Part shown: in pieces, positions 25,359 through 38,024 of the stretch
Layout of the letters: every line of letters begins with the position of its first letter
Numbering within the stretch: position 1 is the first letter of the stretch
Assembly (NCBI GenBank): GCA_934162615.1
Contig: CAKPJK010000001.1
Span: forward strand, 29,754-93,753
Reading direction: 5' to 3'
From: an uncultured Clostridia bacterium
GTDB taxonomy: Bacteria > Bacillota > Clostridia > TANB77 > CAG-508
DNA: 64,000 bases
Made by a program: the position numbers and the translations under genes
The notes under the pieces: generated by a model
Told to the model about the DNA's origin: nothing
The model's input: the letters and a program-made list of their open reading frames with translations, nothing else
Database searches by the model: none

Positions 25359-26253
25359 AGAAAGAAGGAATGTGGCATAGTAAAATTATTAAATCCCAAA
25401 AATGATTATGTTTTCAAAAGAATATTTGGACAAATTGGAAACGAAGATATAACTGCTTCATTAATAAGTTCAATAGTTGGCAAAGAAATAACGAATGTCG
25501 AATTAGACAATAATACAATACTTGAAAAAGATTTATTTGATGACAAAGTAGGAATTTTAGATATAAAAGCAAAAATAGACAGTAATATTAATTGTGATAT
25601 AGAGATGCAAGTGGTGGATAAAAATGATATAGAAAGAAGATTATTATTTTATTGGAGTAGATTATTTAGTAAAAGTATAAAAGCAGGAAAAGATTATTCA
25701 GAATTAGAAAAAACAATAGCAATATTAATAACAGATTATGAATTAGAATCATTAAAACAAATCCCCAAATATCAAACAAAATGGCAAATAAGAGAGGAAG
25801 AATACTACCAAGCAATATTGACAGATGTCATGGAATTGTATATAATTGAATTACCAAAGTTCATAAAGAACAAAGAAAACAAGAAAAAACAGGTGGACCC
25901 ATGGTTAAAATTTATAGAAAATCCAGAGGTGGTAAATATGGATGAAAATGCAGCAATAAAAAAAGCCCAAAAAGAATTAGAAAAAATAAGCAATGATGAG
26001 CATGAAAGATATTTGGCAGAATTAAGAGAAAAATATATAATGGATCAAAAAGCAACAGAAGATGCAGGATATTATAAGGGGATAAAAGAAGGAAGAGAAG
26101 AAGGAATTAAAGAAGGAGAAATTAAACGGAAGAGAAAAAGGAAAAAAAGAAGAGAAAGAAAATGTGGCAAGAAAATTATTACAACGAAAAATAGATATTG
26201 ATGTGATAATTCAAGCAACAGGACTTACAAAAGAAGAAATAGAAAAATTGTAA
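25359..26253 (+). pseudogene. Rpn-family recombination-promoting nuclease / PD-(D/E)XK putative transposase, disrupted by two frameshifts
   Basis: Family-typical KLLNPKNDYVFKRIFG N-terminus and DIEMQV core lie in a frame with no ATG/GTG/TTG before 25605; the nearby ATG (25370) is in another frame. The typical C-terminus NVARKLLQRKIDIDVIIQATGLTKEEIEKL is read in the +1 frame, ending at 26253. Confidence 0.7.
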
Positions 26254-28110: not shown

Positions 28111-28139
28111 TTGCAATAAGTAAATATTTATTATATAAT
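28111..28139 (+). promoter_or_regulatory. Sigma-A type promoter of small peptide gene 1
   Basis: TTGCAA (28111-16), 17-nt spacer, TATAAT (28134-39). Confidence 0.45.
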
Positions 28140-28169
28140 TACTTTGCCTTCAAAAAGGAGGTGAAGTGA

Positions 28170-28241
28170 ATGAATGAATTGAAAAACATGTTGAAAATCA
28201 TTTTAATATTAAAACTTTTAGAGTTTTTGGAAAGTGATTGA
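28170..28241 (+). CDS. 23-aa peptide MNELKNMLKIILILKLLEFLESD; type I toxin candidate
   Basis: SD AGGAGGTG 6 nt upstream. Own promoter and terminator. Paralog of the 22-aa ORF at 33661-33729. Not in the ORF track because it is too short. Confidence 0.5.
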   Translation: MNELKNMLKIILILKLLEFLESD

Positions 28242-28247
28242 AATTTA

Positions 28248-28326
28248 AAAAGAACAGGACTGGCATCCTGTTCTTTTATAAGTTCATGAAAGAACTGAAA
28301 AACATTTTTGTTATTTGCTTAAGCTA
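28248..28326 (-). ncRNA. Convergent small RNA (antitoxin-like) of module 1
   Basis: Minus-strand promoter TTGACA (28360-28355), 17-nt spacer, TATACT (28337-28332). Ends at the shared terminator. Its 5' part is complementary to 28170-28192, the start codon and first codons of the peptide gene. Confidence 0.45.
28251..28278. terminator. Bidirectional terminator shared by peptide gene 1 and the convergent sRNA
   Basis: AGAACAGGA...TCCTGTTCT stem, flanked by an A-run upstream and a T-run downstream. Confidence 0.7.
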
Positions 28327-28439
28327 TTTGTAGTATACTACATATTTTATTATATGTCAATATTTACGAAAAAATTCATATTAACTATAAATATATTTTA
28401 TATTAGAAATTTAATTATAAAATAAAATTTAGTACAATT

Positions 28440-31400
28440 TTAAACTTTTTCAGTAGTTTCAATATTTTTTTCTACATCTTTATTTTCAATCTCCAAAGAC
28501 TTTTTCTCATTTTCCTGACGTTGCAAATTATCCTTAGCAACAGTCATCAACAATTTAATTCTATTAGCCTGGTTAGTCTCACTAGCACCTGGGTCATAAT
28601 CAACAGGAGAAATATTAGCCTCCGGATATTTTTCTCTAATTGTTTTGATAACACCTTTACCAACAACGTGATTTGGTAGACAAGCAAAAGGTTGAACACA
28701 TATGATATTTGGAATATCATGTTCCATATATTCAATCATTTCTGCAGTTAAGAACCAACCTTCACCAGTTTGATTTCCAATAGATAAAACGTCTTTTACT
28801 TTATCTTCTAAGTGCCAAATATCACAAGGTTGTAAATATCCTTTTTTAGAATTTGCCAATGCAATCTTTTCATCTTTTTCTAATATATCGATTAATTTTA
28901 TTGCTATTTTACTTATTTTTGCAGATGTTTTATTTATATTTAATAAACTATTAAATGTAATTTTATGTGTTGCCATAAATTTAACAAATCCCATAAAGTC
29001 TGGTAAAATAACTTCTGCTCCTTCTTTTTCAAGCATTTCTGCTGCGTAGTTATTTCCAAATGGATGGTATTTAATTAATACTTCTCCAACGATTCCTACT
29101 TTAGGCTTTTTAATAGATGTATCTAATTCAATTTTTTCAAAATCATTTACAATATCATAAATACTTTGCTTAAATTGTTTATTTGTTGACTTTTTAACCA
29201 TTTGTTTACATTTAGCCATCCACTCGTCATATAGTTTTTGAGTTTCACCTTTGTTTACTTCATATGCTCTGTTTTTTGTAAGCATTTTTTGTAATAAATC
29301 ACCATAAACAACAGATTTTATTAATCCTTCAATTAATTTTGGTGTTATTTTAAATCCTGGCATTTTTTCCATACCAACAACATTGAATGATATTACTGGT
29401 ACATTGCTAAATCCTGCGTCTTTAAGAGCTTTTCTTATGAATCCTATATAGTTTGTTGCTCTACATCCACCACCTGTTTGTGACATGATTAATGCAGTTT
29501 TATTTAAATCATATTTTCCAGATTCAAGAGCTTCAATCATTTGTCCTGTTACTAAAATTGATGGGTAACAAGCATCGTTATTTACATATTTTAAACCTGT
29601 TTCTACGGTATGTTGAGTGCATTCTCTTAGTAATACAGCATTATAACCTGCGGCTTGTACGGCAGATTCCAATAAATCAAAATGTACTGGTGCCATTTGA
29701 GGGATTAAAATTGTGTAATCTTTTTTCATTTCTTTTGTAAAGATTTTTTTCTTTAATCCGTAGTCACCATCGGCTTTTTCTTCTTGTTTTTTTGCTATAC
29801 GTTTATTCATACTTGCTAGAAGTGAACGAATACGAATTCTTACAGCGCCTAGGTTATTAACTTCATCTATTTTTATTAGTGTGTACATTTTATCATAACT
29901 TGACAAAATTTCTTCAACTTGGTCTGTTGTTACTGCGTCAACACCGCATCCAAATGAATTTAATTGTACTAATTCTAAGTTATCATGTTTACCAACAAAG
30001 TCTGCTGCTGCGTAAAGTCTTGCGTGGAATACCCATTGGTCCACAACTCTTATTGGACGTTTTGCTTCTGTTTTGTCAGATACGCTGTCTTCTGTTAGAA
30101 CACATAATCCTAATGATGTAATTAAAGTATCTATACCATGGTTTATTTCTGGGTCGATGTGATAAGGTCTTCCTGCTAAAACAATTCCTCTTAGGTTGTT
30201 TTCTTCAATATATCTTACGGTTTCTGTACCTTTGTCTCGTATGTCTTTTTTACATTTTTGATATTCTGCCTCTGCTTTTTCTGCAGCTTCTAATAATTCT
30301 TTTTTAGTAAAGTTATATTCTTTGAATTCATCTAATTCCATTATTTTTTTAACTAGATTTTTAGTTTCAAATGGTAAGAATGGATTCATAAATTTTATAT
30401 TATGTGTTTTTAAATTTTCAACATTATTTTTTAGTACTTCTGAATATGAGATTACTATTGGACAATTGTAGTGGTTGTCTGCTTTTTTATATTCTTTTCT
30501 TGAATAAGGCATACAAGGGTAGAAAATAGTTTTTATTCCTTTTTCAATTAAGTTTTCAATATGTCCATGAGAGATTTTTGCTGGATAACATACGGATTCA
30601 GATGGCATAGATTCCATTCCTTTTTCATATGTTTTTCTTGTACTTTTATCTGATATAATTACCCTAAAGCCTAGACTTGTGAGGAATGTGAACCAGAATG
30701 GATAATCTTCATACATATTTAAAACTCTTGGAATTCCTATAGTTCCTCTAGTTGCATATTGTTCTTCAAGTGGTTTATAATCAAATATTCTTTGATATTT
30801 GTATTGTACTAAGTTTGGTAAATTCTTTTTATTTGTTGTAATACCTGCACCTTTTTCACAACGGTTACCAGATACGTGTATTGCACCATTGCTAAATTTA
30901 TTTATTGTTAATTTACAATGATTTTCACAATTGTTACATCTTGCATGAGTTACTTTAATTTCTAATTTATCTAATTCATCTGCTTTTAAAATAGTTGATT
31001 TGTATTCCATATCTAGGTTTGATTCATATTGTTCTTTTGAAAGTAAAGCCATTCCATATGCACCCATTAGACCTGCAATGTCTGGTCTTACAACATCTTT
31101 TCCAACTATTTTTTCAAATGCTCTTAATACTGCATCATTGTAGAATGTTCCACCTTGTACTACAATGTGGTCTCCCAAAGTGGCCGTATCCCTAACTTTC
31201 ATAACTTTTTGAATAGCATTTTTTATAACTGAATATGAAAGCCCACTTGAAATATCTCCTACTGTATAGCCTTCTTTTTGAGCTTGTTTTATTTTAGAGT
31301 TCATAAATACTGTACATCTTGAACCTAAATCAACTGGTCTTTTTGCTTCAATTGCTTCTTTAACAAATTGTGAAATTTCTAAGTTTAGACTCTTTGCAAA

Positions 31401-33526: not shown

Positions 33527-33571
33527 TTTGAAAAATTTGACATATGGTAAAGTATGTGTTAATATATATTT

Positions 33572-33659
33572 AGCAATTGCAAAACAAGTTTTTCAAAAAG
33601 AAATAAACAAAAAAGGACTGGGAATGTCTCTCAAAACATTTTTCCCAGTCTTTCTTTTT
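33572..33659 (+). ncRNA. Convergent small RNA (antitoxin-like) of module 2
   Basis: Promoter TTGACA (33537-42), 17-nt spacer, TAATAT (33560-65). Terminator stem 33616-33650 plus T-run. The 5' 45 nt are complementary in three blocks to the SD-proximal/start-codon region of the minus-strand peptide mRNA (33703-33742). Confidence 0.5.
33616..33650. terminator. Bidirectional terminator shared by module 2 transcripts
   Basis: GACTGGGAATG...CATTTTTCCCAGTC stem with U-runs on both strands. Confidence 0.7.
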
Positions 33660-33660
33660 G

Positions 33661-33729
33661 CTATTTGCTTAGATATTTTATTATGTAATAAATTAGTATA
33701 AGCTTTAGCAAATCTAACAAGTCTTTCAT
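33661..33729 (-). CDS. 22-aa peptide MKDLLDLLKLILIYYIIKYLSK; type I toxin candidate
   Basis: Minus-strand promoter TTGACA (33804-33799), 17-nt spacer, TAATAT (33781-33776). SD GGAAGGAGG. Paralog of the 28170 peptide. Confidence 0.5.
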   Translation of the reverse strand: MKDLLDLLKLILIYYIIKYLSK

Positions 33730-33837
33730 TTAAGAAATAAACCTCCTTCCTGCCACTAAGCAAGTCGGCGATTTAATATTAATATAAAATCTGTTTATTG
33801 TCAATAGTAAATTAATATATACTAATTTGTAAATATT

Positions 33838-34125: not shown

Positions 34126-34255
34126 AGAAACACTTCTTTCTTTTATTAAAATATTTATAATATAGTATTAAATTGATGTGAAAATTGTTAATATGTAGTT
34201 AGATGAATAAATTGAAAAATTTGACATATAATAAATTATGTGCTAATATGTATTT

Positions 34256-34330
34256 AGCAATTGCAATAAATGGTTTCAAAGATAAATAAAAAAGACTAGG
34301 TGTCGCTAAACAAATCCTAGTCTTTTTTTA
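34256..34330 (+). ncRNA. Third, orphan copy of the antitoxin-like sRNA
   Basis: Promoter TTGACA (34221-26), 17-nt spacer, TAATAT (34244-49). The 5' sequence TATTTAGCAATTGCAA is shared with the sRNA at 33572. Terminator AGACTAGG...CCTAGTCT plus T-run. No adjacent peptide ORF. Confidence 0.45.
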
Positions 34331-34381
34331 TCCAAAATTGTTGTAACATTTTAATATAAAATAAAGAAGAAAGAGAAAAAC

Positions 34382-37805: not shown

Positions 37806-37834
37806 TTGACTTTTTATGAAAACTGATATATAAT
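37806..37834 (+). promoter_or_regulatory. Near-consensus sigma-A promoter
   Basis: TTGACT (37806-11), 17-nt spacer, TATAAT (37829-34). Confidence 0.5.
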
Positions 37835-37916
37835 ATGCCCATAAAAAGTTTAAAATAAAAATCTTAAAGGCTAATAAAATTTAAAGTAATAAAGAAATCA
37901 ACATACAGGAGGTCTT

Positions 37917-38024
37917 ATGATTTTTAAAATCATATTATTTATAATCAATTTTTTAATAGTCAAAAAAATGATTACTAAAATACTAGCAATCATAATCTTA
38001 AAAAAAATCAAAAAAAAAATTTAA
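37917..38024 (+). CDS. Candidate 35-aa hydrophobic/basic peptide MIFKIILFIINFLIVKKMITKILAIIILKKIKKKI
   Basis: AGGAGG 4 nt upstream of the ATG; consensus promoter about 85 nt upstream. The composition could also arise by chance in AT-rich DNA. Confidence 0.35.
   Translation: MIFKIILFIINFLIVKKMITKILAIIILKKIKKKI

Follow-up and report, generated by a model that had tools for sequence, protein, structure and literature searches.

Here, we analyze a 64,000-nucleotide stretch of DNA from an uncultured gut Clostridium (GenBank contig CAKPJK010000001.1; hereafter the window, with a GC content of 27%) and describe a compact element, module 1, that lies between two convergent chromosomal genes, one patatin-like and the other encoding a 1441-aa, 2-hydroxyacyl-CoA-dehydratase-like protein. 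We propose that module 1 is probably a chromosomal type I toxin-antitoxin candidate under par (Fst/RNA II)-type regulation, in which a small antisense RNA (sRNA) would keep the mRNA of a short peptide from being translated. Comparative analysis points to a real, conserved and lineage-restricted candidate with an apparently new peptide family, whose transcription and toxicity we infer. As far as the Pfam, NCBIfam and Rfam libraries tell, both the peptide family and the sRNA family are undescribed.

Architecture of module 1

On the plus strand, module 1 begins with a predicted promoter for the peptide mRNA (28111-28139), in which TTGCAA (28111-28116) and TATAAT (28134-28139) are separated by a 17-nt spacer. 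The Shine-Dalgarno sequence (SD), AGGAGGTG (28157-28164, plus strand), has its GGAGG 7 nt from the ATG of a candidate toxin open reading frame (ORF) of 23 codons, MNELKNMLKIILILKLLEFLESD (28170-28241, plus strand). In the minimum-free-energy fold, the 5' end of the mRNA forms a hairpin (28145-28164, plus strand) with a loop of 4-5 nt, in which an anti-SD sequence, (U)GCCUUC, pairs with the SD, GGAGGU(G). Beyond the ORF lies a bidirectional intrinsic terminator (28247-28277, both strands) common to both predicted RNAs: a 9-bp hairpin with arms AGAACAGGA (28251-28259) and TCCTGTTCT (28266-28274) and a 6-nt loop, flanked by an A-run on its 5' side and a T-run on its 3' side. Our terminator scan missed this hairpin, which is evident in the sequence, the folds and the repeat analysis. 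Converging from the minus strand, an antisense promoter (28332-28360; -35 TTGACA, 28360-28355; 17-nt spacer; -10 TATACT, 28337-28332) matches the consensus at 11 of 12 positions and would drive a candidate antitoxin sRNA of ~80 nt (28246-28325, minus strand), the ends of which are placed by the promoter and the terminator. A sequence-only reading of this DNA had described both promoters, the SD, the 23-aa ORF and the hairpin with runs on both sides, and each lies where that reading had put it.

Because of a direct repeat on the plus strand, the minus-strand RNA is complementary to the start-codon region of the peptide mRNA. Positions 28286-28308 repeat 28170-28192 with 3 mismatches, bearing out the complementarity claimed in the sequence-only reading, and a match of this kind is absent from all 100 shuffles of the window. 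Extended, the repeat spans 29 nt (28164-28192 versus 28280-28308) at 83% identity. The first copy (DR1, plus strand) contains the end of the SD, the start codon and the codons up to the seventh, and would be the sRNA's target site; the minus-strand transcript of the second copy (DR2) is the sRNA segment complementary to DR1. The terminator supplies a second complementary region. Between the mRNA initiation region and the 5' part of the sRNA, the predicted duplex reaches -26.3 kcal/mol, clearly better than the shuffled controls against which the sequence-only reading had proposed to judge it (-15.5 +/- 2.9 kcal/mol; matched by 0 of 500 dinucleotide shuffles).

Two further observations concern these RNAs. 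RNAalifold lengthens the 5' anti-SD helix into the four bases after the sense -10 (28140-28143 with 28166-28169), with compensatory changes. The extended helix fits poorly with a transcription start 7 nt past the -10, which implies either that the start lies closer or that read-through from the patatin-like gene matters. Separately, 28287-28302 within DR2 forms a 16-nt, 88% inverted match with 28446-28461 in the final codons of the 1441-aa gene; a read-through transcript of that gene may pair with the sRNA, or the match may be due to chance in AT-rich DNA.

Other descriptions of the element were tried and set aside. Because module 1 is located at the 3' ends of two genes that converge on it, with none downstream, a leader peptide or attenuator is ruled out. 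A 15-codon ATG ORF on the plus strand (28286-28333) was rejected as a duplicated peptide gene, as it is without an SD and its ATG is gone in two orthologues (L008 and L009). Around module 1, a search for miniature inverted-repeat transposable elements or terminal inverted repeats found none apart from the terminator. An exact-sequence look-up of the 1441-aa neighbor protein returned no record.

Conservation and RNA co-variation

We gathered relatives of the locus through the 1441-aa gene, yielding 80 loci in metagenome-assembled genomes (MAGs) of uncultured gut Clostridia, with protein identities of 78-99%; the source MAGs include uncultured Clostridium sp., Candidatus Merdicola and Clostridium sp. 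CAG:245. nhmmer searches and motif scans recovered intact module-1 orthologues at the same site between the patatin-like and 1441-aa genes in eight of these loci (L001, L008, L009, L010, L011, L015, L018 and L060) and a degenerate orthologue in a ninth (L002), so that nine related species genomes carry the module in some form.

Column identities, computed over 8 non-redundant orthologues, single out the predicted control elements. The -35 and -10 of the antisense promoter are invariant (mean column identity 1.00), with flanks that are 42-73% identical. The SD (0.97) and anti-SD (0.95) come next, followed by the sense -10 (0.92) and sense -35 (0.88), and the sRNA 5' region and DR2 are the least conserved (0.42-0.58). 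The anti-SD and SD recur in the orthologues as a CACCTTC-N4/5-AGGAGGTG motif, and all 10 of the sequences compared retain the helix they form (RNAalifold pairs 7-13 with 20-26). A terminator is present in every orthologue, and its stem shows compensatory changes in the RNAalifold analysis of the mRNA alignment. In the window its loop, CUGGCA, holds CUGG, a YUNR U-turn motif; the loop of the L018 group, CUGCAA, lacks YUNR.

A further comparative signal comes from the pairing between the two RNAs. When the mRNAs and sRNAs of 13 modules were cross-paired, cognate duplexes averaged -29.3 kcal/mol versus -14.9 +/- 1.6 kcal/mol for permuted partners (0 of 100,000 permutations), and the cognate partner was the best one in 12 of 13 rows. 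In an ungapped composite alignment of a 27-bp intermolecular helix from 8 orthologues, 79.6% of cells are paired (66.9 +/- 2.0 in shuffles) and 15 of the 27 pairs have changed on both sides (9.0 +/- 1.8 in shuffles); the covariation score of this helix is 0.40, compared with 0.18 for shuffled alignments and 0.07-0.16 for slid registers. DR2 thus drifts yet tracks DR1 within each genome, and each sRNA fits its own mRNA best.

The encoded peptide

In the eight intact orthologues, the ORF frame is open for 22-25 codons, while frame +1 holds 5-6 stops. Between pairs of orthologues, the differences per site amount to 0.45 at the first codon position, 0.12 at the second and 0.44 at the third, and by this comparison the small ORF shows the substitution pattern expected of a protein-coding sequence. 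The peptide alignment has the consensus MKDLIxxLKLIxILEILQYLxKE, with a KEKK end in several orthologues; M1 and K9 are invariant, and K2 and L14 nearly so.

Measured against Fst, the peptides share the character of both ends. The N-terminus reads MK[DE] in most orthologues, MNE in the window and MKR in L011, and so carries the two charged residues of Fst-type peptides; toward the C-terminus, a Tyr or Phe at position 19 is conserved and precedes a charged tail (KEKK, EKE or ESD). None of the 10 aligned peptides contains the P/D/S/T-XXX-G(C) motif, a Pro anywhere or a Gly in the hydrophobic region. Trp is absent from the Fst position in all module peptides, the sole Trp being residue 4 of the module-2-type peptide of L045. 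BLASTP against Fst-pAD1 gave no alignment. We conclude from these comparisons that, by sequence, the peptide is not a member of the Fst family.

By the membrane-peptide criterion of Fozo et al. (2010), at least 10 of 15 residues hydrophobic, the module peptides pass, and their C-termini are polar or aromatic, as noted there. A 'charge-zipper' pairing of K9 with E15 and similar positions was considered and dropped, as the window peptide has K at both.

Fate of the site in related genomes

The adjacency of the two flanking genes is retained in 26 loci, which fall into groups by intergenic gap: gaps of ~257-335 nt hold the module, gaps of 43-96 nt hold the terminator only, and gaps of other sizes have different content. 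Three of the related genomes capture stages of turnover at the site. In L002 (10348-10599), the ORF is cut by a premature stop after 14 codons and the antisense -10 is deleted. In L003 (10317-10380), only the module-1 terminator hairpin is left between the convergent genes, suggesting that this terminator probably also serves the flanking genes. In L054 (10407-11257, minus orientation), the module-1 sense promoter and anti-SD are kept at the orthologous site, and the peptide gene and sRNA have been replaced by a 240-aa ORF (RNase H plus RepL-like) followed by a different terminator. The first two belong to sister species and mark stages in the loss of the module. Taken together, patchy presence, decay, loss and replacement fit a dispensable, selfish-type module.

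Beyond these loci, a metagenome scan for the anti-SD/SD/start pattern yielded a single true module, L084, among 6 loci; the other 5 are chance matches inside genes of contigs with 42-50% GC. Pattern scans of viral contigs found nothing and so do not point to an origin in phages. With one extra match in the metagenome scan and none in viral contigs, the peptide and sRNA families are confined to one uncultured gut Clostridia lineage.

A second module, an orphan sRNA gene and other small features

A scan of the window for small ORFs led by an SD uncovered a second peptide, MKDLLDLLKLILIYYIIKYLSK, within a paralogue of the same design, module 2 (33537-33804), whose peptide gene lies on the minus strand. 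Its predicted sense promoter (TTGACA, 33804-33799; TAATAT, 33781-33776), SD (33750-33742) and ORF (33729-33661) are followed by a bidirectional terminator (33653-33609) and by a downstream repeat of the start-codon region, its own DR2 (33595-33569). On the plus strand, an antisense promoter, TTGACA-17-TAATAT (33537-33565), would drive an sRNA from ~33572 to ~33658. The module-2 mRNA leader has a structured 5' end, and the cognate duplex reaches -25.9 kcal/mol versus -12.5 +/- 2.5 kcal/mol when shuffled, a value that 0 of 500 shuffles reach. Module 2 lies between a GerM-domain gene and a 95-aa ORF of unknown function, and has relatives of its type in L001, L045 and L025.

Close by, a module-2-type sRNA gene stands without a peptide gene (34221-34335, plus strand; TTGACA-17-TAATAT and a terminator), 45 nt upstream of a methyltransferase gene. 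Nothing else in the window is complementary to this orphan sRNA, and its pairing with the module-2 mRNA is weak (-12.4 kcal/mol). With this gene, the antisense-promoter motif occurs in 3 copies in the window, where 0.07 are expected. A custom scan of the window for more modules of this design found modules 1 and 2 only; top scan matches in GC-rich loci were rejected as modules, being composition artefacts. Elsewhere, L069 (1090-1345, minus orientation) has a par-like module of this design, whose cognate duplex reaches -41 kcal/mol and whose peptide, MDNNQLIILLVMLVIVLSKGKGGHKS, is of the classical hydrophobic kind.

The window holds three other small features. An SD-led ORF of 35 codons, MIFKIILFIINFLIVKKMITKILAIIILKKIKKKI, hydrophobic and basic, lies behind TTGACT-17-TATAAT (37806-38024, plus strand); it has no par-like repeat, no obvious terminator, and no Pfam or NCBIfam match. 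An Rfam skipping-rope RNA (55439-55515, minus strand; 46.9 bits, gathering score 36.7) lies directly downstream of a 2878-aa ORF (46750-55386). The end of this ORF resembles a sortase anchor, in that a hydrophobic segment and then a basic tail come after a PPTGE motif. A 198-aa ORF (25605-26201, plus strand), ~2 kb away from module 1, matches only the C-terminal two-thirds of PDDEXK_2, the PD-(D/E)XK transposase family model, and probably represents a truncated Rpn-like gene.

Comparison with known type I systems

Loci of the par type are recognized by convergent promoters, a shared bidirectional intrinsic terminator, direct repeats over the toxin initiation site that are transcribed in opposite directions, and a 5' stem-loop that sequesters the SD (PMC7472228). 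Module 1 has all four, and they are conserved or co-varying in eight to ten related genomes. The sequence-only reading's assignment to a par/fst-style organization therefore holds for the architecture, as distinct from membership of the peptide in the Fst family. In these four features the module is like par of the Enterococcus faecalis plasmid pAD1 (Fst/RNA II), parEF0409, and Fst-Sm/srSm of Streptococcus mutans, and like the chromosomal par relatives it lies on a chromosome between unrelated genes. The YUNR U-turn in the terminator loop of the toxin RNA is not found in all par homologues (PMC7472228). There are also differences in layout: par has two repeats, DRa and DRb, whereas module 1 has one repeat of ~25-29 nt, with a short second patch in some orthologues, and its predicted mRNA of ~135 nt is shorter than the ~230 nt of par.

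The peptides differ more. Fst/Ldr peptides are marked by a transmembrane helix and a motif of the PXXXG(C) type, and their charged C-terminus is preceded by a conserved Trp (PMC7472228). Only the charged N-terminus (MKD/MKE) and the charged C-terminus are common to Fst and the module peptides; the latter are 22-25 aa long, compared with 33 aa for Fst, lack both PXXXG(C) and a Trp at the Fst position, have Tyr or Phe before the tail, and have their hydrophobic core broken by the conserved Lys9 and Glu/Lys15.

Among type I systems, defined by a protein of 20-60 aa, an mRNA of 150-400 nt and a base-pairing antisense RNA of 60-200 nt, overlap at the 3' ends combined with interaction outside the overlap is known only in the Fst/RNA II and SprA1/SprA1AS families (PMC8594479). 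The peptides of 22-25 aa, the predicted sRNAs of ~80-87 nt and the in silico pairing lie within this definition, and the predicted mRNAs at its lower edge. Module 1 is organized like SprA1/SprA1AS (PepA1) of Staphylococcus aureus in that the sRNA lies 3' of the mRNA and overlaps it at the 3' end only, not in the ORF, with a functional interaction outside the overlap at the initiation region (PMC8594479). No sequence or Rfam similarity to SprA1/SprA1AS was detected. PepA1, a peptide of the Fst group, is an uninterrupted hydrophobic helix 30 aa long.

TisB of the E. coli tisB/istR-1 system is a short Leu/Ile-rich helix-type peptide with internal Lys, Asp and Gln residues and a ...KYLK-like end. 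The module peptides resemble it in peptide type only, with a module-2 end of ...IKYLSK, and we claim no sequence relationship; the hydrophobic moment of TisB is 0.35, versus 0.05-0.27 for the module peptides. IstR-1 is encoded divergently, 5' of tisB, and the system is under SOS control, an organization unlike that of the modules.

Discussion

Our data suggest a model for module 1 that follows the logic of par. A sigma-A-type promoter would produce an mRNA of ~135 nt encoding a 23-aa Leu/Ile/Lys-rich peptide and ending at the bidirectional terminator, with its SD occluded by the 5' anti-SD:SD hairpin. From the stronger, near-consensus convergent promoter, an sRNA of ~80 nt would be transcribed to the same terminator. 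The two RNAs would be complementary both in the terminator stem-loop, through their overlap, and, through the direct repeat, over ~25-30 nt that run from the SD/AUG spacer through the start codon into the first codons. We propose that contact starts at the terminator loops, and that pairing at the initiation region then blocks ribosome access, so that the peptide would be translated only when the sRNA drops relative to the mRNA; the relative stabilities this implies for the two RNAs are presumed, as is the harm done by the peptide when made, which may come from activity at the membrane. Transcription of both RNAs with the predicted ends is likewise deduced from their promoters and terminator.

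Several observations weigh against this interpretation. The module peptides have no Pfam or NCBIfam match at E <= 10, and tblastn of the 25-aa L015 peptide against phage and plasmid collections gave no match, where the low-complexity filter may mask one. Rfam, suggested as a check in the sequence-only reading, gave no relevant match for the sRNAs of either module at the gathering score or at E <= 10. The longest run free of K, R, D and E is 5-6 residues in module-1 peptides and 8-11 in the module-2 types, versus 15 in Fst, and hydrophobic moments are low (0.05-0.27); with charged residues every few positions, neither kind of peptide is a classical transmembrane helix. For type I systems, mRNAs of 150-400 nt are quoted, and the predicted mRNAs of ~135-165 nt fall at the lower edge of this range or short of it. 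The co-variation of the direct repeats may in principle stem from gene conversion and not from selection on pairing. Finally, promoter-like matches occur in the window at chance level (5 found, 4.8 expected). Since such matches are no commoner than in shuffles, a single sequence proves little about transcription, and they count as evidence only through their conservation across species.

If the peptides are toxins, they may form a new type I toxin class, distinct from simple transmembrane helices, an idea we put forward tentatively. In this scenario, peptides of 22-25 residues, rich in Leu and Ile and with charges conserved at internal positions (Lys9 and Glu/Lys15), might work as oligomers or have a target other than the bilayer, and par-type control would have arisen, or been kept, independently of Fst within a lineage of uncultured gut Clostridia that has reduced genomes. 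Should this be true, the intact, decayed, replaced and terminator-only states of the site would document how a type I module was gained or lost around an intergenic terminator that was there before it.

An unlikely alternative is that the peptide is not a toxin but an antisense-controlled micropeptide with a benign role, for example in modulating a membrane or sporulation protein, whose level is tuned by the sRNA. A peptide without an uninterrupted hydrophobic helix, Fst motifs or a family match would suit such a role, as would the position of the modules among core genes that include sporulation-related ones (GerM, SpmA/B-like). The control apparatus argues the other way: an occluded SD, an invariant antisense promoter and two pairing regions form the full par-type set, which is typical of products that are kept off. 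Sporadic presence, pseudogenization in L002, loss in L003 and replacement in L054 also speak against a housekeeping function, and in L069 a module of this design has a peptide of the classical hydrophobic, toxin-like kind.

We consider it very improbable that function lies with the sRNA itself, as a regulator acting in trans or as an RNA derived from the 3' UTR of the 1441-aa gene, with the ORF and its complementarity incidental or a decoy. That the antisense promoter is the most conserved element, that an orphan sRNA copy exists without an ORF at 34221-34335, and that read-through from the 1441-aa gene would contain the sRNA sequence are all compatible with this explanation. Against it, the ORF is under coding-type constraint behind a strong SD conserved at proper spacing, and the 5' part of the sRNA is its least conserved portion (0.42-0.58) yet tracks its own mRNA, the opposite of what a trans regulator with a conserved target would show. 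That there is no functional module at all, but an ordinary bidirectional terminator with chance hexamers in AT-rich DNA and a decaying tandem duplication, would agree with promoter-like sites being as common in shuffled sequence and with the same terminator standing alone in L003, but is hardly credible given antisense hexamers that are invariant and an SD (0.97) and anti-SD (0.95) that are nearly so while their flanks have diverged, an ORF kept open with a period-3 substitution pattern, repeat copies that co-vary, a paralogous module of different sequence and the same design, and a 40-60% divergence among orthologues that excludes recent horizontal copies of one sequence.

Type I systems are known mainly from cultured Proteobacteria and Bacilli. 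The regulatory logic we propose for module 1 as a type I toxin-antitoxin candidate is the known logic of par; it overturns nothing and is unsurprising in principle. What the analysis adds is a complete par-type module in uncultured low-GC gut Clostridia, documented by comparative evidence alone: co-evolution of the two RNAs, invariant promoters and a coding signature. The 13 cognate pairs, largely orthogonal to one another, make up a compact and testable case of RNA-RNA co-evolution, and the module peptides, such as MKDLIKLLKLLILLEIIQYIKKEKK, are candidate short peptides for tests of membrane activity. In this lineage, a single chromosomal site provides a natural series in which the module is found intact, decayed, replaced and lost.

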